Positions 1-58,725 of a stretch of 64,000 bases of DNA are shown here, in pieces. How positions within the stretch are numbered: position 1 is the first letter of the stretch; the number at the start of each line of letters is the position of its first letter. The DNA is taken from NCBI RefSeq assembly GCF_051903065.1, contig NZ_CP178438.1, one strand, 5' to 3'. The notes beneath the pieces are model-generated. The model did not search any database and had not been told where the DNA came from. It saw nothing but the letters and a program-made list of their open reading frames with translations. A program made the position numbers and the translations under genes. Source of the stretch: Escherichia coli. GTDB lineage: Bacteria; Pseudomonadota; Gammaproteobacteria; Enterobacterales; Enterobacteriaceae.

Positions 1-2079
<2,079 letters not shown>

Positions 2080-2173: not shown

Positions 2174-2293
2174 GCCTGGCGGCCGTAGCGCGGTGGTCCC
2201 ACCTGACCCCATGCCGAACTCAGAAGTGAAACGCCGTAGCGCCGATGGTAGTGTGGGGTCTCCCCATGCGAGAGTAGGGAACTGCCAGGCATC
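2174..2293 (+). rRNA. rrf: 5S ribosomal RNA
   Basis: Matches the canonical E. coli 5S sequence from tgcctggcggccgtagcgcggtgg to gggaactgccaggcat. Confidence 0.96.
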
Positions 2294-2371: not shown

Positions 2372-3273
<902 letters not shown>

Positions 3274-3825
3274 TCCAGGAGATGCTCCTGCATGGCTTTC
3301 AGATATGCATTTTCTGCGCGAAGATAACGCAGCTCATTCTTCATCTCTTCCGGCGTCATGTTTGCCTCGTTTTCATGGGTATCATCAGAACGGGTCATGC
3401 TTTTCTCCTTCCTGCGCCTGATAAAGGCCTCATTACCAGATTTGCGGTAGCCTTTTATCCAGTTTTTAACCATGTTGTGGCTGGGAATGTTAAACCGGGC
3501 AGCTACCCGGGGTAGAGACTCAGAATGCCCGAGAGCATAAAGAACCACGCAAAGTTTATCTTCAGGAGAATAGCTACGCTTGTGTCTGCAATCCAGTGCC
3601 TGAGGACCGTGAAGAAGAAAAAGATTAATCCAGTGTGAGAGGCTGGTGTGAGAAAGTTGAAAGAGTTTTGCCGTAGAAATGATGCCTGCATGACCGGCCA
3701 GGTAATGATTTACAGCGGCAAGTTTTACTTCAAATGAATGTTTCATAAACTGCACCTTCAGATGTCAGATTATGTCCAACATTTGGGGTGCAGTTCATGG
3801 CGCGTCTTATCCAGCCTACTCTTGC

Positions 3826-4353
3826 TTATCCGTTCTGCTTTTGCATCCACTCCACCACAAAATCAGCCAGCCCCTCAACATCATTAATATCCAGTAATGC
3901 GACATCAAGATTAAGCGGCACATCACTGGCTACAGCAATAACATGCCTGTCTATCACTAATTCTTCCGGTCGATGTCCGGCTCTATCGCGAAACAGCACA
4001 ATCTTTGCGATCTCTTCATGCTTAAACCCTTCGACCAGAATCAAATCCAGCTTTGAGGTATCCATTCGACTTGCGAGAAAATGTAGATCCAGCTCTTCTT
4101 CGTCTGGTGTTTCCGTCATCAAGGCCCATCGTTGCTGGCTGGCAACGATGGTTTGTGCCGCGCCAGCCTTGCGCAGCTCATAGCTATCTTTGCCTGGCTT
4201 ATCAACATCCATATCATGGTGCGTATGCTTAATCAGCCCTGGACGGAGCCCTCTGGCGCATAATGCCGGGATCAGTTTTTTCAAAAGCGTAGTTTTTCCG
4301 GTACCACTCCACGCGGCAAAGGCGAGTAACGGTATCATCGTTTTTCCTGCCAT
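3826..4353 (-). CDS. mobB: Molybdopterin-guanine dinucleotide biosynthesis adapter protein MobB
   Basis: 175-aa ORF with Walker A motif AWSGTGKTT; overlaps mobA by 19 nt. Confidence 0.9.
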
Positions 4354-4919
4354 CGGGCAAGCTCCTCTGGCGTATTCACGTTAACAAATGCATCTTTATG
4401 ATCGCTGAAATCAACCGCATGCCCGCCAGCCAGACGCATAAATGCCATTACCCGGCGTTCTCCTGCTTGCAGATATTCCAGTAATAAAGGCTCAATAGCG
4501 CGGTTTACCAGAGCAATAGTCGGGTGATCGCGTTCACCGTCATGGACCCACACGACAGGCGCATCTTTGCGCTGATGATTAAGCCGGGCGGCTAAATCAG
4601 GGGGAATGTAAGGCGTATCGCAAGGGCAAAACAAAAACCACTCACCAGCTTCCTGCTGCATTACTGAAAGCATTCCTGCCAGAGGGCCTGGGTAATCCGC
4701 CAGTGAATCTTCAATCACTTTCAGACCGCCTGCCTGATAGATTTCCTGATGACGATTAGCATTAACCACGACGTGAGAGAGCTGCGTCATAAGCGCGTCA
4801 GCGACATGTTGCCACAGCGGTTTGCCATTTAAGTCCAGCAATCCTTTATCTACGCCGCCCATTCGTCTGGCTTTACCGCCTGCCAGCACAACGCCTGTTA
4901 TCGTCGTCATCAGATTCAC
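4335..4919 (-). CDS. mobA: Molybdenum cofactor guanylyltransferase MobA
   Basis: 194-aa ORF with [11 protein letters not shown] motif; the operon partner mobB lies downstream. Confidence 0.92.
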
Positions 4920-5334: not shown

Positions 5335-6321
5335 ATGAACAACAGCGCTTTTACTTTCCAGACACTACACCCGGATACCATCATGGACGCTCTGTTTGAG
5401 CAAGGGATCCGGGTGGATTCCGGTCTTACCCCGCTTAACAGCTATGAAAACCGTGTCTATCAATTTCAGGACGAAGATCGTCGACGTTTTGTCGTCAAAT
5501 TTTATCGCCCTGAACGTTGGACAGCCGATCAAATCCTCGAAGAACATCAATTTGCGTTGCAGCTGGTAAATGATGAAGTTCCGGTCGCAGCACCTGTGGC
5601 CTTTAACGGTCAGACTTTATTGAATCATCAGGGATTTTATTTCGCTGTTTTTCCCAGCGTCGGTGGTCGCCAGTTCGAAGCTGATAATATCGATCAGATG
5701 GAAGCGGTTGGGCGTTATTTAGGGCGTATGCACCAGACGGGGCGCAAACAGCTTTTTATCCATCGCCCGACCATCGGTCTGAATGAATATCTCATTGAGC
5801 CACGCAAGCTGTTTGAGGACGCTACACTGATACCTTCCGGGTTGAAAGCGGCATTCCTGAAAGCGACAGATGAGCTGATCGCCGCCGTTACAGCACACTG
5901 GCGGGAAGATTTCACCGTTCTGCGGCTACATGGAGACTGCCACGCCGGGAATATTCTCTGGCGCGATGGTCCAATGTTTGTTGATCTGGATGATGCACGT
6001 AATGGTCCAGCTATTCAGGATTTGTGGATGTTGCTCAATGGCGATAAAGCCGAGCAGCGGATGCAACTGGAAACTATTATTGAAGCTTATGAAGAATTTA
6101 GCGAGTTCGACACCGCTGAAATCGGACTGATTGAACCTTTACGCGCCATGCGTTTGGTTTATTATCTTGCCTGGCTAATGCGGCGTTGGGCTGATCCCGC
6201 GTTCCCGAAAAATTTCCCGTGGTTAACCGGGGAAGATTACTGGCTACGACAGACGGCGACTTTTATAGAACAGGCAAAAGTTCTACAAGAACCCCCTTTG
6301 CAATTAACACCTATGTATTAA
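5335..6321 (+). CDS. srkA: Stress-response Ser/Thr protein kinase SrkA (RdoA/YihE)
   Basis: 328-aa ORF recognised as YihE; kinase-like HGDCHAGN and DLDD motifs; sits immediately upstream of dsbA as in E. coli. Confidence 0.9.
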   Translation: MNNSAFTFQTLHPDTIMDALFEQGIRVDSGLTPLNSYENRVYQFQDEDRRRFVVKFYRPERWTADQILEEHQFALQLVNDEVPVAAPVAFNGQTLLNHQGFYFAVFPSVGGRQFEADNIDQMEAVGRYLGRMHQTGRKQLFIHRPTIGLNEYLIEPRKLFEDATLIPSGLKAAFLKATDELIAAVTAHWREDFTVLRLHGDCHAGNILWRDGPMFVDLDDARNGPAIQDLWMLLNGDKAEQRMQLETIIEAYEEFSEFDTAEIGLIEPLRAMRLVYYLAWLMRRWADPAFPKNFPWLTGEDYWLRQTATFIEQAKVLQEPPLQLTPMY

Positions 6322-6337
6322 TCGGAGAGAGTAGATC

Positions 6338-13449: not shown

Positions 13450-13596
13450 GATTCGCCTGAACATGCCCTTTTTTCGTAAGTAAGCAACATAAGCTGTCAC
13501 GTTTTGTGATGGCTATTAGAAATTCCTATGCAACAACTGAAAAAAAATTACAAAAAGTGCTTTCTGAACTGAACAAAAAAGAGTAAAGTTAGTCGC

Positions 13597-13705
13597 GTAG
13601 GGTACAGAGGTAAGATGTTCTATCTTTCAGACCTTTTACTTCACGTAATCGGATTTGGCTGAATATTTTAGCCGCCCCAGTCAGTAATGACTGGGGCGTT
13701 TTTTA
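13597..13705 (+). ncRNA. spf: Spot 42 small RNA
   Basis: Sequence gtagggtacagaggtaagatgttctatctttcagacc...gccccagtcagtaatgactggggcgtttttta matches Spot 42; canonical position between polA and engB. Confidence 0.9.
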
Positions 13706-14733: not shown

Positions 14734-14978
14734 ATAGAGCGAGGACGCTAACAGGAACAATGACTCAGGATGAGGGTCAGGAGCGCCAGGAGGCGAAGAC
14801 AGAGGATTGTCAGGAAGACAAACGTCCGGAGACGTAATTAAACGGAAATGGAATCAACACGGATTGTTCCGGCTAATGGAAAAACAGGGTGTGTTGGCGG
14901 CCTGCAAGGATTGTAAGACCCGTTAAGGGTTATGAGTCAGGAAAAAAGGCGACAGAGTAATCTGTCGCCTTTTTTCTT
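14734..14978 (+). ncRNA. csrC: CsrC small RNA (CsrA-sequestering)
   Basis: About 245 nt with many GGA motifs (caggatgagg, caggagcg, caggaagac, ccggagacg, tcaggaaa...) ending in the terminator ggcgacagagtaatctgtcgccttttttc; canonical position between engB and yihI. Confidence 0.85.
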
Positions 14979-15044
14979 TGCTTGCTTTCTGTTAGATTCC
15001 GCCGCAAATCTATACTGAATAAAACGGCTAAAAGACGAACCATT

Positions 15045-21729: not shown

Positions 21730-21800
21730 GCTGCACCATGATGTGAATGTTGCACCAATATAGTGCTTCAATGGAAACATTAAGCACCATATTGGTGCAA
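21730..21800 (-). promoter_or_regulatory. NtrC enhancer-binding sites upstream of glnA
   Basis: Dyads of the TGCACC...GGTGCA type (gcaccatattggtgca, ttgcaccaatatagtgc, tgcaccatgatgtg). Confidence 0.55.
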
Positions 21801-21950
21801 TGACCTTTGGATAACCCTTTTTATGCTCCGTGAAAGCGATCACAAAGGGACTCTGCAATACTTGTTTGCGGAGGATGTTTGTGATCCTGTTTTGTAGTGC
21901 GATTAATCCGTGTACAATAACGCGCTATTTCTAATGCCTGAGGCAAAGTT

Positions 21951-23774
21951 GTGATCGAAAAATTGCGTAATATCGCCATCATCGCGCACGTAGACCATGG
22001 TAAAACCACCCTGGTAGACAAGCTGCTCCAACAATCCGGTACGTTCGACTCTCGTGCCGAAACCCAAGAGCGCGTGATGGACTCCAACGATTTGGAGAAA
22101 GAGCGTGGGATTACCATCCTCGCGAAAAACACCGCTATCAAATGGAATGATTACCGTATCAACATCGTTGATACCCCGGGGCACGCCGACTTCGGTGGTG
22201 AAGTTGAACGTGTAATGTCCATGGTAGACTCAGTGCTGCTGGTGGTTGACGCATTTGACGGCCCGATGCCGCAAACGCGCTTCGTAACCAAAAAAGCGTT
22301 TGCTTACGGCCTGAAGCCGATTGTTGTTATCAACAAAGTTGACCGCCCTGGCGCGCGTCCTGATTGGGTTGTGGATCAGGTATTCGATCTGTTCGTTAAC
22401 CTCGACGCGACCGACGAGCAGCTGGACTTCCCGATCGTTTACGCTTCTGCGCTGAACGGTATCGCGGGTCTGGACCACGAAGATATGGCGGAAGACATGA
22501 CCCCGCTGTATCAGGCGATTGTTGATCACGTTCCTGCGCCGGACGTTGACCTTGACGGTCCGTTCCAGATGCAGATTTCTCAGCTCGATTACAACAGCTA
22601 TGTTGGCGTTATCGGCATTGGCCGCATCAAGCGCGGTAAAGTGAAGCCGAACCAGCAGGTCACTATCATCGATAGCGAAGGCAAAACCCGCAACGCGAAA
22701 GTCGGTAAAGTGCTGGGCCACCTCGGTCTGGAACGTATCGAAACCGATCTGGCGGAAGCTGGCGATATCGTGGCGATCACGGGCCTGGGCGAACTGAACA
22801 TTTCTGACACCGTTTGCGACACGCAAAACGTTGAAGCGCTGCCGGCACTCTCCGTTGATGAGCCGACCGTTTCTATGTTCTTCTGCGTTAACACCTCGCC
22901 GTTCTGCGGTAAAGAAGGTAAGTTCGTAACGTCTCGTCAGATCCTGGATCGTCTGAACAAAGAACTGGTACACAACGTTGCGCTGCGCGTAGAAGAAACC
23001 GAAGACGCTGATGCGTTCCGCGTTTCTGGTCGTGGCGAACTGCACCTGTCTGTTCTGATCGAAAACATGCGTCGTGAAGGTTTCGAACTGGCGGTATCCC
23101 GTCCGAAAGTTATCTTCCGTGAAATCGACGGTCGTAAACAAGAGCCGTATGAAAACGTGACTCTGGACGTTGAAGAACAGCATCAGGGTTCTGTAATGCA
23201 GGCGCTGGGCGAACGTAAAGGCGACCTGAAAAACATGAATCCAGACGGTAAAGGCCGCGTACGTCTCGACTACGTGATCCCAAGCCGTGGTCTGATTGGC
23301 TTCCGTTCTGAGTTCATGACCATGACTTCCGGTACTGGTCTGCTGTACTCCACCTTCAGCCACTACGACGACGTACGTCCGGGCGAAGTGGGTCAGCGTC
23401 AGAACGGTGTACTGATCTCTAACGGTCAGGGTAAAGCGGTCGCGTTCGCGCTGTTCGGTCTGCAGGATCGCGGTAAGCTGTTCCTCGGTCACGGTGCAGA
23501 AGTTTACGAAGGTCAGATTATCGGTATTCATAGCCGCTCTAACGACCTGACTGTAAACTGCCTGACCGGTAAGAAACTGACCAACATGCGTGCTTCCGGT
23601 ACTGACGAAGCCGTTGTTCTGGTTCCGCCTATCCGCATGACTCTGGAACAAGCTCTGGAGTTCATCGATGATGACGAACTGGTAGAAGTGACTCCGACCT
23701 CTATCCGTATTCGTAAACGTCACCTGACGGAAAACGATCGTCGCCGCGCCAACCGCGCACCGAAAGACGATTAA
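21951..23774 (+). CDS. typA: Ribosome-associated translational GTPase BipA/TypA
   Basis: 607-aa ORF with G-domain motifs [18 protein letters not shown]. Confidence 0.95.
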
Positions 23775-23792
23775 TTTCGTTTTTTAGTTATA

Positions 23793-23823
23793 AAAAACCT
23801 GCCATCGCTGGCAGGTTTTTTTT
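23793..23823 (+). terminator. Rho-independent terminator after typA
   Basis: Hairpin aacctgccatcgctggcaggtt followed by a T-run. Confidence 0.6.
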
Positions 23824-23990
23824 TACCTGTCGTGAGCGCACACCAATGCGAGTATCTCCCTTATAAGTCTGTGATTACGTCAATAGAGAGCTTTGTCACA
23901 ATTATCTGCAAAGTCATACGCCGTTAATTGCTTTCTTTTTTGGCGTAAGCGTAAGATGCTTCATCTGGTTTAAACCAAAAGGATTAAACA

Positions 23991-24844: not shown

Positions 24845-25120
24845 GTGGCTTCTGTTTCTATCAGCTGTCCCTCCTGTTCAGCTACTGACGGGGTGGTGCG
24901 TAACGGCAAAAGCACCGCCGGACATCAGCGCTATCTCTGCTCTCACTGCCGTAAAACATGGCAACTGCAGTTCACTTACACCGCTTCTCAACCCGGTACG
25001 CACCAGAAAATCATTGATATGGCCATGAATGGCGTTGGATGCCGGGCAACAGCCCGCATTATGGGCGTTGGCCTCAACACGATTTTACGTCACTTAAAAA
25101 ACTCAGGCCGCAGTCGGTAA
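24845..25120 (+). CDS. insA: IS1 InsA
   Basis: Protein identical to the other IS1 copy; GTG start. Confidence 0.9.
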
Positions 25121-25542
25121 CCTCGCGCATACAGCCGGGCAGTGACGTCATCGTCTGCGCGGAAATGGACGAACAGTGGGGCTATGTCGGGGCTAAATCG
25201 CGCCAGCGCTGGCTGTTTTACGCGTATGACAGGCTCCGGAAGACGGTTGTTGCGCACGTATTCGGTGAACGCACTATGGCGACGCTGGGGCGTCTTATGA
25301 GCCTGCTGTCACCCTTTGACGTGGTGATATGGATGACGGATGGCTGGCCGCTGTATGAATCCCGCCTGAAGGGAAAGCTGCACGTAATCAGCAAGCGATA
25401 TACGCAGCGAATTGAGCGGCATAACCTGAATCTGAGGCAGCACCTGGCACGGCTGGGACGGAAGTCGCTGTCGTTCTCAAAATCGGTGGAGCTGCATGAC
25501 AAAGTCATCGGGCATTATCTGAACATAAAACACTATCAATAA
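25039..25542 (+). CDS. insB: IS1 InsB
   Basis: Protein identical to the other IS1 copy. Confidence 0.9.
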
Positions 25543-35380: not shown

Positions 35381-36279
35381 TTGCGCTCCTCGTCTTTCTC
35401 TTCGTGCAGATTATTCTCTTCCTCATCCGCACGGTTCGGACCGACACCCACGTAGTGGAAGATACTGGCTGCGAAGGTAGCCGCAAAGCCAACAGCTGCG
35501 AGCGGTTTCCAGATGCCTTTCCAGAATTTCACGGTTTCGCTGATTTCCGGGTTCTCCGGCAAGCCATGATACAGATTTGGCTTGTCAGCATGGTGCAGCA
35601 CGTACATAACGTGTGTACCACCGACGCCTGCCGGATCGTACAGGCCCGCATTGTCGTAACCGCGGGTTTTCAGCTCCGCCACGCGCTCGCTCGCCAGCGT
35701 TTTCATCGACTCTTTCGTACCAAAGTGAATCGCGCCCGTTGGGCAGGTCTTCACGCAGGCTGGTTCTTGCCCAACCACCACGCGGTCAACGCACAGCGTA
35801 CATTTGTAGACGCGGTTGTCTTCCGGGTTGAGGCGCGGAATGTCGAACGGACAGCCCGCAATGCAATAACCGCAGCCAATGCACTGCTCGGACTGGAAGT
35901 CGACGATACCGTTGGCATACTGAATAATTGCCCCTTCCGCCGGGCACGCTTTCAGACAGCCTGGATCGGAACAGTGCATACAGCCGTCTTTGCGGATCAG
36001 CCATTCCAGTTTGTCGTTCTGCTCCACTTCCGAGAAGCGCATCACCGTCCACGATTTGGCGCTTAAATCATTGGGGTTGTCGTACACCCCAATGTTATTG
36101 CCGACGGTATCGCGAATGTCGTTCCACTCTGAACACGCCACCTGACAGGCTTTACAGCCGATACAGGTGGTGACGTCGATGAGTTTCGCCACTTCTTCCT
36201 GGAAGTCCCGCGCCTGAGGCGCGGGGGTCAGACCGTTAGTCGCGGAACGACGAATGATATCTTGCGATTGATAAGCCAT
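35377..36279 (-). CDS. fdoH: Formate dehydrogenase-O iron-sulfur subunit
   Basis: 300-aa ORF with four ferredoxin-type CxxCxxCxxxCP clusters and a C-terminal membrane anchor. Confidence 0.95.
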
Positions 36280-36291
36280 ATGTCGTCTCCG

Positions 36292-39200
36292 TTACACCTT
36301 TTCCACATTCACAAGGAAGGACTTAAACTCCGGCGTCTGCGTGTTTGCATCACCAACGAATGGCGTTAACGTATTGGCAATAAAGCCTTTTTTAGCTACG
36401 CCTTCATAGCCCCAGTGAATCGGAATACCGATGGTATCGATATCTTTGCCGTTCGCTTTCAGCGTGCGAATACGTTTGGTCACCACCGCTTTGGCTTTGA
36501 TATAGCCACGGTTGGAGGAGACTTTCACGGTATCGCCCTGGGCAATGCCAAGTTTATTCGCCAGCGACTCCCCGATTTCCACAAACTGCTCTGGTTGCAA
36601 AATCGCGTTCAACAGCGCGTGTTTGGTCCAGTAGTGGAAGTGCTCGGTCAGACGATAGGTGGTTCCGACATACGGGAACTTATCGGCTTTACCCAATGCT
36701 TCGGCGTCGTCTTTAAAGATTCGCGCAGCCGGGTTCGAGATAACGTTTGGATGCAGCGGGTTAGTTCCCAGCGGCGTTTCAAACGGCTCGTAGTGTTCCG
36801 GGAACGGACCTTCCGCCATCTTATCGAGGGCAAACAGACGCCCCATGCCTTCCTGCTGCATGATAAACGGCCCGACGCCGCTACCCGGAGGCGCTGCGCT
36901 GTAGTCCGGAATATCCCAGCCGGTCCACTTAGTGCCGTCCCATTTCAGCAACTGACGCTTCGGATCCCACGGGTTACCCTGCGGATCTGCGGAGGCGCGG
37001 TTATACAGAATGCGGCGGTTAAGCGGCCATGCCCATGCCCAGCCCAGCGTGTTACCGAGGCCAGACGGATCGGCGTTATCACGGCGTGCCATCTGGTTGC
37101 CTTCCGGCGTCCAGCTACCGGCGAAAATCCAGCAGCCACAGGAGGTTGTACCGTCATCGCGCAATTGGGCGAACGAGCTAAGTTGTTGGCCTTTCTTGAC
37201 GATAACCGCACCGGTTGCCGGATCGGTAATATCGGCCAGCGCCTTACCGTTGCTCTCCATCGCTACTTCTTCCGACTTCGGCTCATGCGGAATGGCGTAG
37301 TTCCAGGTCATGTTCAGCACTTGGTCCGGGTTCGCGCCACCCTGTTCGGCATACATCTTGCGCAAGCGCAGGAAGATACCGGAGAGGATCTCGCCGTCAG
37401 TCAGCGCAATCCCCGGGGCGTCCGCACCTTTCCAGTGCCACTGTAACCAGCGACCTGAGTTAACGATAGAACCGTTCTCTTCCGCGAAGCAGGTCGATGG
37501 CAGACGGAACACTTCGGTCTGGATCTTCGACGAGTCAACTTCGTTCAGCTCACCGTGGTTCTGCCAGAAGTTAGAGGTTTCAGTGTTCAGCGGGTCGATG
37601 GTGACGAGGAACTTCAGTTTCGACAGACAACCGATCACTTTGTTTTTGTTCGGGAATGAGGCAACAGGGTTAAAGCCCTGGCAGATATAGCCATTGACCT
37701 TGCCCTCTTTCATCATCTCGAAGTATTGCAGGACGTCGTAGCCTTTATCCCACTTCGGCAACCAGTCAAAGCCCCAGCTATTTTCCGCCGTCGCTTTATC
37801 ACCAAAGAAGGCCTTCATCATGGAGACGAAGAATTTCGGGTAGTTGCCCCAGTAGTTTACCTGGCCTTCCAGCAGCGGTTTTGGCGTGTTGGCGGTAAGG
37901 TAGGTTTGCAGATCGGTCTGCTTCTCGCTTGGCAGCGTCATGTAACCTGGCAGGCTCTGCGACAGCAGCCCCAGGTCCGTCAGCCCCTGAATATTGGAGT
38001 GACCGCGCAGGGCGTTAACGCCGCCGCCAGCCATCCCCATGTTACCGAGCAGCAGCTGGATCATCGCCATCGTACGAATGTTTTGCGCACCAACGGAGTG
38101 TTGCGTCCAGCCGAGGGCATACAGGAACGAGGCAGTTTTATCGTGAGCACTGGTTTCTGCGATGTATTCGCAGACTTTCAGGAACGCGTCTTTTGGCGTA
38201 CCACAGATGTTTTCAACCACATCTGGCGTGTAGCGGGAAACGTGCTGTTTCAGCAAGTTCCACACGCAGCGCGGATGTTGCAGCGTGGTATCGCGTTTGG
38301 CGAAGCCGTTTTCGTCCAGTTCGTAAGTCCAGGAGGATTTATCGTACTTGCGTTTTTCCGCGTCGTAGCCGGTGAACAGGCCATCTTCAAAGCCGTAATC
38401 CTCACGCACGATCAGGCTGGCGTTGGTATAGGCTTCGGTGTATTCGCGGTTGAATTTTTCATTGTTCAGCAGGTACAGCAATACGCCTGACAGGAAAGCA
38501 ATGTCAGTACCGGAACGAATAGGGGCATAGTAGTCAGCCACCGCAGCCGTACGCGTAAAGCGAGGATCGATCACAATCAGCTTCGCGCCATTGTGAATTT
38601 TGGCTTCCATCGCCCAGCGGAACCCGACCGGGTGAGCTTCAGCGGCGTTACCGCCCATCACCACGACGAGGTTGGCGTTCTTGATGTCGACCCAGTGGTT
38701 GGTCATCGCACCGCGACCAAATGTTGGAGCAAGACTTGCTACCGTTGGTCCGTGTCAGACACGCGCCTGGTTGTCGACCGCGAGCATACCCAGCGCGCGG
38801 GAGAATTTTTGCGTTAAATAGCCGGTTTCGTTACTCGACGCGGAAGCACACAGCATCCCGGTGGAGAGCCAGCGGTTAACAGTCACGCCTTCGGCGTTTT
38901 GCGCAATGTAGTTAGCATCGCGGTCTTCTTTCATCAGTTTGGCGATGCGATCAAACGCCTCTTCCCAACTGATTTGCTGCCATTTATCAGAACCTGGCGC
39001 ACGGTATTCCGGAAACTTCAGACGGCTTTCGGAGTGGATGAAATCCACCAGGCCAGCGCCTTTCGGACAAAGTGCACCGCGGTTGACCGGGTGATCCGGA
39101 TCGCCTTCGATATGGAAGATAGATGCTTTGGCGTTTTTTGCTCCGTCACCGAGGCTGTACATCAACAGCCCACAGCCTACGGAACAATAGGTGCAGGTAT

Positions 39201-39342
39201 TACGGGTTTCGCGGGTGCGCAGCAGTTTATACTGCCGGGTTTCCGCGAGTGCTACGCTGGGTGCAAAACCCAGTGCCGCTGCCGTGGTGCCTGCCATACC
39301 GCCAGCGCAGATCTTAAAGAACTGCCTTCTGCTGACCTGCAT
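36292..39342 (-). CDS. fdoG: Formate dehydrogenase-O catalytic subunit, a selenoprotein; one CDS of ~1016 aa containing an in-frame UGA
   Basis: Two in-phase ORFs (195 aa and 804 aa) separated only by TGA; twin-arginine signal MQVSRRQFFKICAGG; molybdopterin oxidoreductase motifs. Confidence 0.93.
38755..38757 (-). other. UGA selenocysteine codon (position ~196 of FdoG)
   Basis: In-frame TGA between the two fdoG ORF halves, at the conserved active-site position of formate dehydrogenases (…RV-U-HGP…). Confidence 0.85.
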
Positions 39343-39535
39343 GGATTGCTCCTTGTTTCGACATTGTCACGTCCCATTTACATTCGCTTGCTGCGTGTGC
39401 AGGGAGTGGGAGTTATTTTTCTTTGCGGAAGGGGCCGCAAAGGTCCAGAATTGGCTCAATTTCCCTCCATCCAGGAAGGGTTTGTAACAGAATACCATAA
39501 TGTTGGTGTGTGTGTTCTTATCTGGTTAAGAGAAA

Positions 39536-40369
39536 GTGAAAAAAACACAGCAAAAAGAAATCGAAAATGTGACAAATATCACAGGTGTTCGTCAAATTGA
39601 GTTATGGCGGCGTGATGATTTACAACACCCACGGTTAGATGAGGTCGCGGAAGAAGTTCCCGTTGCGCTGGTCTACAACGGCATTTCGCATGTGGTGATG
39701 ATGGCGTCGCCCAAAGACCTTGAGTACTTTGCGCTCGGTTTTTCGCTTTCCGAGGGGATAATAGAAAGTCCGCGCGATATCTTCGGCATGGATGTCGTTC
39801 CTTCCTGTAATGGTCTTGAAGTACAAATTGAGCTTTCCAGCCGCCGCTTTATGGGGTTGAAGGAGCGCCGCCGGGCGCTGGCGGGACGTACGGGCTGTGG
39901 CGTATGCGGCGTGGAGCAACTTAATGACATCGGAAAACCGGTGCAGCCGCTACCGTTCACCCAGACGTTTGATCTCAACAAACTGGATGATGCATTACGT
40001 CATCTCAACGATTTTCAGCCAGTGGGGCAACTGACTGGTTGTACTCACGCCGCTGCCTGGATGTTGCCATCTGGCGAACTGGTCGGCGGGCATGAAGACG
40101 TGGGTCGCCATGTGGCGCTGGACAAACTGTTAGGCCGCCGGTCACAAGAAGGGGAAAGCTGGCAGCAAGGTGCGGTACTGGTTTCCAGTCGTGCCAGTTA
40201 TGAAATGGTGCAAAAGTCGGCGATGTGCGGCGTAGAGATTTTGTTTGCGGTGTCTGCCGCGACCACGCTTGCTGTAGAAGTGGCTGAGCGCTGTAATTTG
40301 ACACTGGTAGGTTTTTGTAAACCGGGTCGGGCAACGGTTTATACCCATCCGCAGCGTTTGAGCAATTAA
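39536..40369 (+). CDS. fdhD: Formate dehydrogenase sulfurtransferase FdhD
   Basis: 277-aa ORF containing the GCGVCG cysteine motif; divergent from fdoGHI. Confidence 0.92.
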
Positions 40370-46820: not shown

Positions 46821-48215
46821 ATGAAAAAATCGACATTATCTTTAGCCATCGGTTTATTATTGGCATGTAGTACCGGTATGGCAAAAACACAGCATTTAAC
46901 GCTGGAACAACGCATGGCATTGCTGGAAGAACGCCTGGAAGCGGCAGAAATGCGGGCGGCAAAAGCAGAGAGCCAGGTTAAACAGCTGCAGACACAACAA
47001 GCCGCTGAGATCCGCGAAATTAAGGCTGCCCAGGGCAATACGCCGGTAAATGGACAGACAACAGCGGAATCTGCAAAGAAAAATGCCACCTCACCTAATC
47101 TTTTGCTTTCAGGTTATGGCGATTTAAAAATCTACGGCGACGTAGAATTTAATATGGATGCGGAAAGTAATCATGGCCTGCTGGCAATGACCAACGCTGA
47201 TGTGAATAGCGATTCCACCAATGAACAGTGGAATCTCAATGGTCGTATTCTGTTAGGTTTTGATGGTATGCGAAAACTGGATAATGGCTATTTCGCCGGG
47301 TTCTCCGCACAACCGCTGGGGGATATGCACGGTTCAGTAAATATCGATGATGCGGTATTCTTCTTTGGCAAAGAAAACGACTGGAAGGTCAAAGTAGGCC
47401 GTTTTGAAGCCTACGATATGTTCCCGCTGAATCAGGATACCTTTGTTGAACATTCCGGTAATACTGCGAACGATCTTTATGACGATGGCAGCGGTTATAT
47501 CTATATGATGAAAGAGGGCCGCGGGCGCTCTAACGCTGGCGGTAATTTCCTCGTCAGCAAACAACTCGATAACTGGTATTTTGAATTAAACACGTTACTT
47601 GAAGACGGAACATCTTTATATAATGACGGTAATTATCATGGACGCGATATGGAGCAGCAGAAAAATGTTGCTTATCTGCGCCCAGTAATTGCCTGGTCGC
47701 CGACGGAAGAATTCACCGTTTCCGCAGCGATGGAAGCGAACGTGGTAAATAATGCTTATGGTTATACCGATAGCAAGGGTAATTTTGTCGATCAGTCCGA
47801 TCGTACCGGCTATGGTATGAGCATGACCTGGAATGGCTTGAAAACGGATCCGGACAATGGCATTGTGGTTAATCTTAATACCGCCTATTTAGATGCTAAT
47901 AATGAGAAAGATTTCACTGCCGGGATTAACGCGCTGTGGAAACGTTTCGAGCTCGGTTATATCTACGCGCACAATAAGATTGATGAATTCAGCGGTGTAG
48001 TTTGTGATAACGACTGCTGGATTGATGATGAAGGGACGTACACCATTCACACCATTCATGCGTCTTATCAGTTCGCTAATGTGATGGATATGGAGAACTT
48101 TAATATTTACCTCGGGACGTATTACTCCATTCTGGATAGCGACGGCGATAAAAAACACGGTGATGATACTGATGACCGTTACGGCGCACGCGTTCGCTTT
48201 AAATACTTCTTCTGA
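46821..48215 (+). CDS. Putative outer-membrane beta-barrel porin with an N-terminal coiled coil (carbohydrate-porin-like)
   Basis: Signal peptide MKKSTLSLAIGLLLACSTGMA, then a heptad-like stretch (LTLEQRMALLEERLEAAEMRAAKAESQVKQLQTQQAAEIREIK), then alternating aromatic/polar beta-strand patterns ending in the OMP-type C-terminus RFKYFF; AT-rich upstream region. Confidence 0.6.
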   Translation: MKKSTLSLAIGLLLACSTGMAKTQHLTLEQRMALLEERLEAAEMRAAKAESQVKQLQTQQAAEIREIKAAQGNTPVNGQTTAESAKKNATSPNLLLSGYGDLKIYGDVEFNMDAESNHGLLAMTNADVNSDSTNEQWNLNGRILLGFDGMRKLDNGYFAGFSAQPLGDMHGSVNIDDAVFFFGKENDWKVKVGRFEAYDMFPLNQDTFVEHSGNTANDLYDDGSGYIYMMKEGRGRSNAGGNFLVSKQLDNWYFELNTLLEDGTSLYNDGNYHGRDMEQQKNVAYLRPVIAWSPTEEFTVSAAMEANVVNNAYGYTDSKGNFVDQSDRTGYGMSMTWNGLKTDPDNGIVVNLNTAYLDANNEKDFTAGINALWKRFELGYIYAHNKIDEFSGVVCDNDCWIDDEGTYTIHTIHASYQFANVMDMENFNIYLGTYYSILDSDGDKKHGDDTDDRYGARVRFKYFF

Positions 48216-49431: not shown

Positions 49432-49847
49432 GTCGGATGCACGACCCGTAGGCCGGATAAGGCGCTCGTGCCGCATCCGGCAATCAATGCCTGATGCGAC
49501 GCTGTCGCGTCTTATCAGGCCTACAACTATTGCCGACCTGTAGGCCGGATAAGGCACTTGTGCCGCATCCGGCAATCAATGCCTGATGCGACGCTGTCGC
49601 GTCTTATCAGACCTACAACTATTGCCGACCTGTAGGCCGGATAAGGCGCTCGTGCCGCATCCGGCAATCAATGCCTGATGCGACGCTGTCGCGTCTTATC
49701 AGGCCTACAACTATTGCCGACCTGTAGGCCGGATAAGGCACTTGTGCCGCATCCGGCAATCAATGCCTGATGCGATGTCGCGTCTTATCAGGCCTACAAC
49801 TGTTGCCGACCTGTAGGCCGGATAAGGCACTTGTGCCGCATCCGGCA
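49432..49847. repeat. BIME: tandem array of about 4.5 REP-pair units (~91 bp each) between rhaD and rhaA
   Basis: The unit gcctgatgcgacgctgtcgcgtcttatcaggcctacaactattgccgacctgtaggccggataaggc[gctcg or acttg]tgccgcatccggcaatcaat repeats with minor variants. Confidence 0.88.
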
Positions 49848-58629: not shown

Positions 58630-58725
58630 CGGAGTGTAGGCCTGATAAGACGCTATCAGCGTCGCATCAGGCATCCTGCTCAAATGCCGGATGCGGCGTA
58701 AACGCCTTATCCTGCCTACAAATGC
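58630..58725. repeat. REP elements
   Basis: gcctgataagacgctatcagcgtcgcatcaggc ... gccggatgcggcgtaaacgccttatcctgcctac. Confidence 0.6.

Follow-up and report, generated by a model that had tools for sequence, protein, structure and literature searches.

The binding of SelB and the need for a SECIS hairpin in the read-through of UGA codons are known from the literature on fdhF and fdnG. The SelB-binding structure has been defined in review as an apical mini-hairpin 11 nt past the UGA, whose contact bases are a bulged U (U17) and the G and U of its loop (G23 and U24) (PMC8659212); this was the criterion used here. Only three selenoproteins of Escherichia coli are decoded through UGA, FdoG among them (PMC3636253), and selA, selB and selD are established for the species (PMC3636253, PMC8124441). 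Mass spectrometry has placed UGA-specified selenocysteine (Sec) at position 196 of FdoG, while in the absence of Sec-tRNASec the translation of FdoG ends at codon 196 (PMC3636253). The Sec UGA of fdoG and its SECIS element are already known, textbook biology, and the present locus was compared with these systems.

The window, a stretch of 64,000 nt of E. coli DNA, differed in nothing of substance from E. coli K-12 around fdoG and represents another strain. The locus and gene order were the same (fdoG-fdoH-fdoI-fdhE, with fdhD divergent), as were the length of 1016 aa, the UGA at codon 196, the SRRQFFK motif and Cys50/53/57/92. The fdoG DNA matched the E. coli fdo locus at 100% identity and, over the whole gene, was likewise identical to NZ_AP045789.1 and NZ_CP083585.1. 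The closest paralogue, E. coli fdnG (the alpha subunit of formate dehydrogenase-N, FDH-N; PDB 1KQF), shared 83% amino-acid and 78% nucleotide identity with fdoG across the first 447 codons; it also has Sec at codon 196, with a SECIS element that belongs to Rfam SECIS_3. The longest identical run between these two genes was 71 nt (38760..38690), and this covered both the UGA and the SECIS element. The fdnG locus lies elsewhere in the genome as fdnGHI (at approximately 1.9 Mb in O157). According to the literature, its regulation differs from that of fdoG in being nitrate-induced.

On the minus strand, 39342..36292 translated as a single frame of 1016 codons plus a terminal stop, in which the sole internal stop was codon 196, a TGA at 38757..38755 in the raw-sequence context GTC TGA CAC. 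A sequence-only reading of the window had proposed that this one in-frame UGA splits the apparent open reading frame (ORF) of fdoG, and translation together with the ORF list bore this out: the same frame contained ORFs of 195 aa (38755..39342) and 804 aa (36292..38706). The latter begins at the first ATG after the TGA, a codon that specifies Met213 in full-length FdoG, and the 16 codons between TGA and ATG (HGPTVASLAPTFGRGA) were open and strongly conserved. Under a uniform-codon model, our own arithmetic gave a probability of approximately 1e-17 for some 820 stop-free codons after a stop; therefore, the long frame beyond the TGA is not a matter of chance. Gene identity was evident from the TIGR01553 equivalog (1572 bits, cut-off 814) and from the Pfam domains Molybdop_Fe4S4 (PF04879), Molybdopterin (PF00384) and Molydop_binding (PF01568); the assignment of Cys50, Cys53, Cys57 and Cys92 as [4Fe-4S] ligands follows PMC3636253. 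FdoG aligned over its full length with chain A of 1KQF, placing the stop codon opposite X (Sec196). Considering all of the evidence, the locus is E. coli fdoG, with UGA codon 196 translated as selenocysteine through a downstream SECIS hairpin (probability approximately 0.97). Feature coordinates are collected in Table 1.

Table 1. Features of the fdo locus, in window coordinates, with the evidence for each.
Feature	Coordinates	Strand	Evidence or remark
fdoG CDS; catalytic alpha subunit, formate dehydrogenase-O	36292..39342	-	1016 codons + stop; read through one UGA
Predicted Tat signal peptide, residues 1-33	39244..39342	-	SRRQFFK motif, hydrophobic region, ALA-E cleavage motif
[4Fe-4S] cluster domain, residues 44-103	39034..39213	-	PF04879, 59.7 bits; Cys50, Cys53, Cys57, Cys92 in translation
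UGA codon 196, in frame, read as selenocysteine, the predicted Mo ligand	38755..38757	-	Sequence, 1KQF alignment, relatives, published mass spectrometry
SECIS element, Rfam SECIS_3 (RF01989)	38702..38760	-	Spans the UGA, the hairpin and, 3' of it, 10 unpaired nt
Full SECIS hairpin, lower and apical helix (Rfam model positions 7-49)	38712..38754	-	Rfam structure line
Apical mini-hairpin, predicted SelB-binding, GGUAGCAAGUCUUGCUCC	38726..38743	-	Fold, covariation, spacing
fdoH, iron-sulfur beta subunit	35377..36279	-	TIGR01582, 478.7 bits; Pfam Fer4_11, Form-deh_trans; RefSeq
fdoI, cytochrome b556 gamma subunit	34745..35380	-	NF007924, 453.3 bits, cut-off 341
fdhE, accessory protein for periplasmic formate dehydrogenases	33819..34748	-	Pfam FdhE_N, FdhE_central, FdhE_C; RefSeq
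fdhD, sulfurtransferase/chaperone for bis-MGD cofactor, divergent from fdoG	39536..40369	+	TIGR00129, 340 bits; Pfam FdhD-NarQ; RefSeq

The sequence-only reading had placed a SECIS hairpin immediately 3' of the UGA, at about 38700-38754 on the minus strand. This was correct: Rfam SECIS_3 matched here at all 59 model positions, scoring 84.3 bits with E = 1.6e-19, above the gathering score of 63, and with the UGA at model positions 4-6 (38757..38755), and the covariation and Cys-paralogue comparisons described below also supported the hairpin. The spacer CACGGACCAAC separates the UGA from the apical hairpin, which begins 11 nt after the UGA and has the form GG-U-AGCAA-GUC-UUGCU-CC, that is, a stem of 5 bp closed by a 3-nt GUC loop. 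In fdhF numbering, its bulged U (38741) is U17, its loop G (38735) is G23 and its loop U (38734) is U24. The reading had also suggested alignment to FdnG and FdhF; on alignment the UGA coincided with Sec196 of FdnG, while the fdhF hairpin (Rfam SECIS_2, RF01988) displayed the same 11-nt spacer, the same GG-U(bulge)-stem-loop and the same distances of U17, G23 and U24 from the UGA (PMC8659212). The fdhF structure differs in having an apical stem of only 4 bp closed by GGUC, in its lower-stem sequence and in the encoded peptide; the fdoG sequence scored 28.1 bits against SECIS_2, for which the gathering score is 70.

Folding energy was less informative. The trimmed hairpin of 44 nt had a minimum free energy of -13.8 kcal/mol and a moderate excess of stability over shuffled sequences (z = -2.06), while the 58 nt from the UGA folded no better than shuffles (z = -0.10); stability by itself is a weak guide and does not pick out the SECIS element. 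The lower helix was ambiguous in its register. Two of the Rfam pairs, 8-48 and 12-44, are non-canonical in the E. coli variant, which is better served by a different, ungapped register of 6 bp (11-16 with 41-46) that does not suit other relatives; the Rfam register suits beta-proteobacterial variants, and neither was favoured overall.

Relatives were collected from many genera by a codon-degenerate scan that returned at least 120 sites. Among the matches listed, the UGA site was TGA in 117 of 120 loci and TGY in the other three, in agreement with the proposal that Sec occupies a conserved position. The 117 Sec-type loci, from other species, provided 62 distinct sequences among the matches listed, in which the apical helix was paired without exception and the lower helix was 86–87% paired. 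Two apical pairs lie entirely at third-codon positions, on which the search pattern set no constraint, and both sides of these pairs had changed (35 cells): among these 62 sequences, pair 21-33 was GC in 42, AU in 14 and GU in 6, while pair 24-30 was AU in 41, CG in 17 and GC in 4. Shuffled sequences and slid partners served as controls for the covariation test, applied to the same scan (at least 120 sites); the observed covariation score was reached by none of 500 shuffles, and pairing was 92.8%, against 25–49% with slid partners. Loop positions G26 and U27 were invariant among the sequences listed though unconstrained by the search pattern, whereas the bulged U20, invariant too, was fixed by that pattern through a Val codon. 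The loop codon in the Sec-type relatives listed was only ever AGU or GGU. From these substitution patterns, the structure of the apical hairpin is evidently kept by compensatory synonymous changes.

Three Cys-type FdnG-like paralogues (from Klebsiella sp., Brenneria and an Enterobacter MAG) have TGT or TGC where fdoG has TGA. They share with fdoG the surrounding peptide CHGPTVAALAPTFGRGAMTN and the complementarity of the lower helix, but have Ala (GCN) at the loop in place of the Ser or Gly (AGU/GGU) of Sec-type genes. SECIS_3 scored 40–49 bits on these sequences, below the gathering score of 63, and the apical hairpin was broken. Because the Cys paralogues retain the lower helix, its pairing must in part simply follow from conservation of the peptide. 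The sequence-only reading had named the absence of a SECIS-like hairpin, together with a Cys codon at the aligned position, as evidence against Sec; in fdoG the hairpin is present and the codon is TGA.

It is extremely improbable that the TGA is a genuine stop, leaving either a pseudogene or two genes for proteins of 195 aa and 804 aa. Such a reading draws on the two ORFs listed by a mechanical ORF finder, on the presence of both exact fragments as separate entries in public protein sets, where each occurs on no fewer than 1000 contigs, and on the termination at codon 196 that occurs without Sec-tRNASec (PMC3636253). Set against this, identity over the TGA and its flanking 59 nt was 99% or higher in all but one of 5433 E. 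coli records (5432), this 59-mer occurring twice per genome, once in fdoG and once in fdnG, and the TGA was retained across many genera in the proportion given above. The 16 codons that precede the ATG were conserved as protein, and the ATG itself encodes an internal Met within a conserved GAMTN motif; moreover, the solved homologue 1KQF is one chain across the site, RefSeq carries the gene as a single intact CDS and does not mark it as a pseudogene, and Sec196 has been observed by mass spectrometry in full-length FdoG (PMC3636253). The reading was rejected, having in practice been refuted already. A second reading attributes the frozen 60–70 nt past the UGA to recent gene conversion between fdoG and fdnG, or to constraint from codon usage or protein, rather than to selection on RNA structure. 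The identical 71-nt run stands out within an overall identity of 78%, and the same 59-mer is found in both paralogue types across Enterobacterales; likewise, the persistence of the lower helix in Cys paralogues, and the fact that part of its pairing follows from the peptide HGP...FGRG, are compatible with protein constraint. However, conversion leaves unexplained the compensatory third-position changes by which 100% pairing of the apical helix is preserved in Beta-, Alpha- and Gammaproteobacteria and in other groups, the invariant G and U at unconstrained loop positions, and the loss of exactly the apical hairpin in TGY paralogues. Given these features, and a covariance model score above Rfam's curated threshold, conversion as the sole explanation was considered very unlikely and was rejected in favour of a conserved SECIS hairpin.

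There was, nonetheless, a pattern beyond that hairpin. Synonymous-codon identity among close relatives was 0.96–1.00 over codons 0 to +19, and 0.29–0.96 per five-codon block in the flanks, where most blocks fell between 0.4 and 0.7. The synonymous freeze continued for approximately 10–20 nt past the point where the canonical hairpin ends on its 3' side, as far as 38690 (codons +15 to +21), and was common to fdoG and fdnG, nucleotide for nucleotide, across Enterobacterales. It is doubtful that this reflects either micro gene conversion still under way between fdoG and fdnG or an RNA function additional to SelB binding (e.g., in the pausing of ribosomes or the refolding of the hairpin); it could equally be explained by plain low-degeneracy codons (M, W, N, H).

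The neighbouring genes were consistent with fdoG. The gamma subunit scored 243.6 bits against the FdnI model NF007558, below its cut-off of 339, and its gene order and FdoI-type gamma subunit identify the operon as that of formate dehydrogenase-O (fdo) rather than FDH-N (fdn). A consensus scan for promoters and terminators over 33500-39700 returned fewer sites than shuffled sequence and was uninformative. In the 5' UTR, the Rfam family FdoG1_thermometer was considered and rejected, as its score of 32 bits fell short of the gathering score (50) and it aligned well only with the ribosome binding site and first ten codons.

A Tat signal (RRQFFK) had also been proposed for the N-terminus. The translation contained the motif S4-R-R-Q-F-F-K10, followed by the hydrophobic stretch ICAGGMAGTTAAALGFAPSV and then by A31-L-A33 before E, which fits S/T-R-R-x-F-L-K plus AxA; residues 1–33 aligned with residues 1–33 of FdnG in 1KQF. 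While these elements were as expected, the generic profiles, both short and weak models, did not detect the signal: TIGR01409 gave 10.2 bits against a cut-off of 16.7 (E = 0.79) and PF10518 (Tat, Pfam) gave no match on FdoG. The Tat signal was therefore called from its motif and from the literature, in which it is described as 'typical' (PMC10609526) and is supported also by PMC3636253.

Combining these results with the published mechanism, the mRNA at 38754..38712 (minus strand) would fold into the SECIS hairpin when a ribosome reaches the UGA, and its apical stem-loop would offer the C-terminal domain of SelB the bulged U and the G and U of the loop. SelB, competing with release factor 2, would then bring Sec-tRNASec to the A site, after which the hairpin would be unwound and translated as HGPTVASLAPTFGRG. 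Sec196 would become the ligand that the protein supplies to the molybdenum of the bis-MGD cofactor, and FdoG would be exported by the Tat pathway through its SRRQFFK signal. The gene encodes the catalytic subunit, of 1016 residues, of formate dehydrogenase-O (FdoGHI), an enzyme bound to the membrane and facing the periplasm. As for the host, tRNA-Sec was annotated in 5424 of 5426 E. coli genomes (identified with a 95-nt selC query), with none inside the window. To this scheme the present analysis contributed the reading frame with its UGA, the identity of the gene, the match to SECIS_3, the compensatory changes, the absence of the apical hairpin from Cys paralogues and tRNA-Sec, while SelB binding, the competition with release factor 2, Mo ligation and export by Tat are literature results or inferences.

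Of the elements of the sequence-only reading, each of which was tested, only one was not borne out. The claim that automated annotation splits such genes held for naive gene calling. The fragments in public protein sets attest to it, and some of the N-terminal fragments were named 'sulfate ABC transporter substrate-binding protein'; RefSeq/PGAP, however, keeps fdoG as a single CDS of 3051 nt. The automatic RefSeq name for this gene is 'fdnG', an artefact that arises because of the TIGR01553 equivalog. The biology gains nothing new, since covariation and the Cys-paralogue controls re-derive a known SECIS element from sequence data. The result matters mainly for annotation: gene callers that are blind to recoding split fdoG, and the resulting fragments spread through protein databases.

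Translated on the minus strand (39342..36292), fdoG comprised 1016 sense codons and a terminal stop. The only internal stop in this frame was codon 196, around which the raw sequence reads ...GCG CGT GTC TGA CAC GGA CCA.... The mechanical ORF list accordingly contained two ORFs in the fdoG frame, at 38755..39342 (195 aa) and 36292..38706 (804 aa); the second appears to start at 38706 because this is the first ATG past the stop, and the 16 codons from the TGA to that ATG (HGPTVASLAPTFGRGA) are open and conserved. The sequence-only reading had described an in-frame UGA at 38755-38757 splitting fdoG into 195 and 804 aa, and since the translation, the raw sequence, the ORF list and the open, conserved 16 codons all agree, its coordinates and description were correct. 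Approximately 820 open codons in frame after a stop cannot be chance (~1e-17, our own arithmetic from a uniform-codon estimate).

Several E. coli chromosomes matched the 3051 nt of fdoG at 100% identity, and 5425 of 5426 complete E. coli genomes had the gene. RefSeq annotates a single uninterrupted CDS at the fdo locus, with fdoH, fdoI and fdhE after it and divergent fdhD, yiiG and frvR before it. In every listed genome RefSeq/PGAP names this gene 'fdnG / formate dehydrogenase-N subunit alpha', while its neighbours bear the correct names fdoH and fdoI; the label arises because the equivalog TIGR01553, which matched the product at 1572 bits, does not tell the O isoenzyme from the N isoenzyme. 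The gamma subunit scored 453 bits against the FdoI model NF007924 (cut-off 341) and 244 bits against the FdnI model NF007558, under its cut-off of 339. The gene is established as fdoG by its neighbours and by the gamma subunit. Fe4S4, molybdopterin and dinucleotide-binding domains were identified with Pfam. In the alignment to FdnG that the sequence-only reading had suggested as a check, FdoG matched the solved structure 1KQF over its full length, and its stop codon fell on the residue recorded as X, i.e., Sec196. The translation includes Cys50, Cys53, Cys57 and Cys92, which are assigned to the [4Fe-4S] cluster (PMC3636253).

A SECIS hairpin had been predicted 3' of the UGA, at about 38700-38754, and this was borne out both by comparative evidence and by a match to Rfam SECIS_3 (RF01989) at 38702..38760 (-), which covered all 59 model positions (84.3 bits, gathering score 63, E = 1.6e-19). 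When the U of the UGA is counted as 1, the bulge is U17 and the loop bases are G23 and U24. In the SECIS of fdhF, nucleotides 17, 23 and 24 are described as SelB contacts, with an 11-nt spacer (PMC8659212); the two elements share the 11-nt spacer and have U17, G23 and U24 at equal positions. The fdhF sequence used was confirmed in 5418 E. coli genomes and aligned to the Rfam SECIS_2 consensus. When folded, the 58 nt from the UGA gave z = -0.10, and z was -2.06 both for the trimmed hairpin and for the mini-hairpin. Thermodynamics by itself is unimpressive here, and the case for the SECIS therefore depends on comparative evidence.

Features of the fdoG SECIS, Cys-type sites in related loci and other elements of the window (Cys-type sites are numbered within their own loci)
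Feature	Position	Strand	Remark
UGA	38757..38755	-	raw sequence
Spacer CACGGACCAAC	11 nt directly after UGA	-	SECIS anatomy
Apical hairpin GG-U-AGCAA-GUC-UUGCU-CC, 18 nt	38743..38726	-	
Lower helix, 3' strand	as far as 38712	-	
Cys-type site, Klebsiella sp. (locus L039)	3794-3852		
Cys-type site, Brenneria roseae (locus L060)	6278-6336		
Cys-type site, Enterobacter MAG (locus L066)	4247-4305		
Partial 23S rRNA	1-2079		Rfam
5S rRNA	2175-2290		Rfam
IS3-family element, IS1397-like (rve, HTH_21)	2398-3755	-	between 5S rRNA gene and mobB
Spot 42	13587-13705		Rfam
CsrC	14734-14987		Rfam
ES222	21762-21869		Rfam
STnc370	23759-23827		Rfam
IS1 copy	25039-25542	+	adjoins yihL
naRNA4 (REP-derived), four tandem matches	49451-49794	+	between rhaA and rhaD, Rfam
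naRNA4, one match	58639-58716	-	downstream of cpxA, Rfam
ES036	63721-63762	-	Rfam

Relatives were scanned, one genome per species, with the degenerate pattern U/C-H-G-P-T-V-A-x-L-A-P-T-F-G, in which the first codon was TGA, TGC or TGT, only codon positions 1 and 2 were fixed, and third positions and the loop codon were left free. Among the matches listed, 117 of 120 sites had TGA and three had TGT or TGC, and the Sec-type sites yielded 62 distinct 59-mers. Under the Rfam structure, 100% of apical helix cells were paired in these 59-mers. Pair 21-33 was G-C in 42, A-U in 14 and G-U in 6, and pair 24-30 was A-U in 41, C-G in 17 and G-C in 4; these changes were both synonymous and compensatory, because a third-codon position lies on each side of each pair. 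The observed pairing or covariation was matched by none of 500 shuffles, and pairing fell from 92.8% to 25-49% once the 3' partners were shifted by 1-3 columns. The loop codon was exclusively AGU (Ser) or GGU (Gly) among the matches listed, and thus G26 and U27 were invariant, though free in the pattern. The lower helix was weaker (86-87% paired), and its register differed between enterobacterial and beta-proteobacterial variants.

Among 23 distinct close relatives, 0.96-1.00 of synonymous codons were identical to the window from codon 0 to +19 after the UGA, against 0.29-0.96 per five-codon block in the flanks (mostly 0.4-0.7), where the top block, FRWAM, consists largely of low-degeneracy codons. 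The 59-mer, which occurs at two places per genome, was conserved at 99% identity or more in 5432 of 5433 E. coli records. E. coli fdoG and fdnG were 78% identical in nucleotides across 447 codons; their longest identical run was 71 nt (38760..38690, beginning one codon 5' of the UGA) and the second longest 28 nt. This synonymous freeze continues at 38690-38711 (-), some 10-20 nt past the 3' foot of the hairpin, to the end of the 71-nt run. Codons +15 to +19 had a synonymous identity of 0.96 in close relatives, and columns 51 and 54 vary in more distant ones. Low-degeneracy codons may account for most of the freeze past the hairpin.

The three sites with TGT or TGC belonged, among the matches listed, to an extra FdnG-like paralogue with Cys replacing Sec (motif DCQARLCHGPTVAALAPTFG). 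These paralogues retained the peptide and the lower-helix complementarity, lacked the SelB-binding apical hairpin and its GUC loop, and scored 40-49 bits against SECIS_3, under the gathering score; they serve as a natural negative control. Together, the conservation, covariation and control data contradict the interpretation of fdoG as a pseudogene or as two separate genes, and equally the proposal that gene conversion alone produced the conservation.

Decoding of the UGA as selenocysteine is also documented directly. Mass spectrometry identified UGA-specified Sec at position 196 of FdoG and of FdnG, with Cys never detected at this residue, and translation ends at codon 196 without Sec-tRNASec (PMC3636253). 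Bis-MGD is ligated via selenocysteine in all three E. coli formate dehydrogenases, all of which require FdhD (PMC6239281), and the SelB/SECIS mechanism is summarized in PMC8124441. A selC query hit an annotated tRNA-Sec gene in 5424 of 5426 E. coli genomes; there was none within the 64-kb window.

The expectation that automated annotation splits such genes was true of naive callers but not of RefSeq/PGAP, which gives one correct CDS. The exact 195-aa (38758-39342 (-)) and 804-aa (36295-38706 (-)) fragments occur as separate entries in a public protein collection. At least 1000 contigs carry each of them, and the clusters to which they belong have 3382 and 6687 members respectively. Some 195-aa fragments, such as CCK00313.1 of Cronobacter malonaticus and ANC40300.1 of Hafnia alvei, bear the name 'sulfate ABC transporter substrate-binding protein', a clear misannotation. 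The proposed Tat signal, RRQFFK, is upheld by the N-terminus itself (S-R-R-Q-F-F-K, then hydrophobic residues and A-L-A|E), by its alignment to that of FdnG and by descriptions of typical Tat signal peptides on both proteins (PMC10609526; PMC3636253), but not by generic Tat profiles (TIGR01409 at 10.2 bits, under 16.7; no Pfam match). In the fdoG 5' UTR, a sub-threshold Rfam match to FdoG1_thermometer (RF02778) at 39313-39511 (-) was rejected (32 bits, gathering score 50). The alignment was good only at the RBS and first ten codons, the upstream helices being largely gaps or mismatches, and the match does not speak for an E. coli thermometer.

Elsewhere in the window, mobB and mobA lie at 3826-4919 (-), ~35 kb from fdoG, beyond polA and glnALG; the MGD cofactor on which FdoG depends is made by MobA, the molybdenum cofactor guanylyltransferase. 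A 614-aa ORF between fabY and yiiE (30276-32120 (+)) had no Pfam match, and in the 100%-identical strain 23CRST027 a partial hypothetical protein and a 'transposase' are annotated there. Only 766 of 5426 E. coli genomes covered at least 80% of the segment 30000-33800, which contains this ORF, and in strain ECNB21-M121 an IS5-like element interrupts the segment; the stretch is a strain-variable islet. Beside IS1 and yihL, a related strain's annotation has a truncated MFS transporter, and the yih sulfoquinovose cluster appears partly deleted relative to K-12. Between rhaM and frvA, a 464-aa ORF (46821-48215 (+)) corresponds in position and size to a 'carbohydrate porin' gene of ECNB21-M121; it is not known at this position in K-12 and is probably strain-variable.

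For fdoG, the observation and the interpretation of the sequence-only reading are both correct, and the selenocysteine codon with its SECIS is a textbook feature of the gene.
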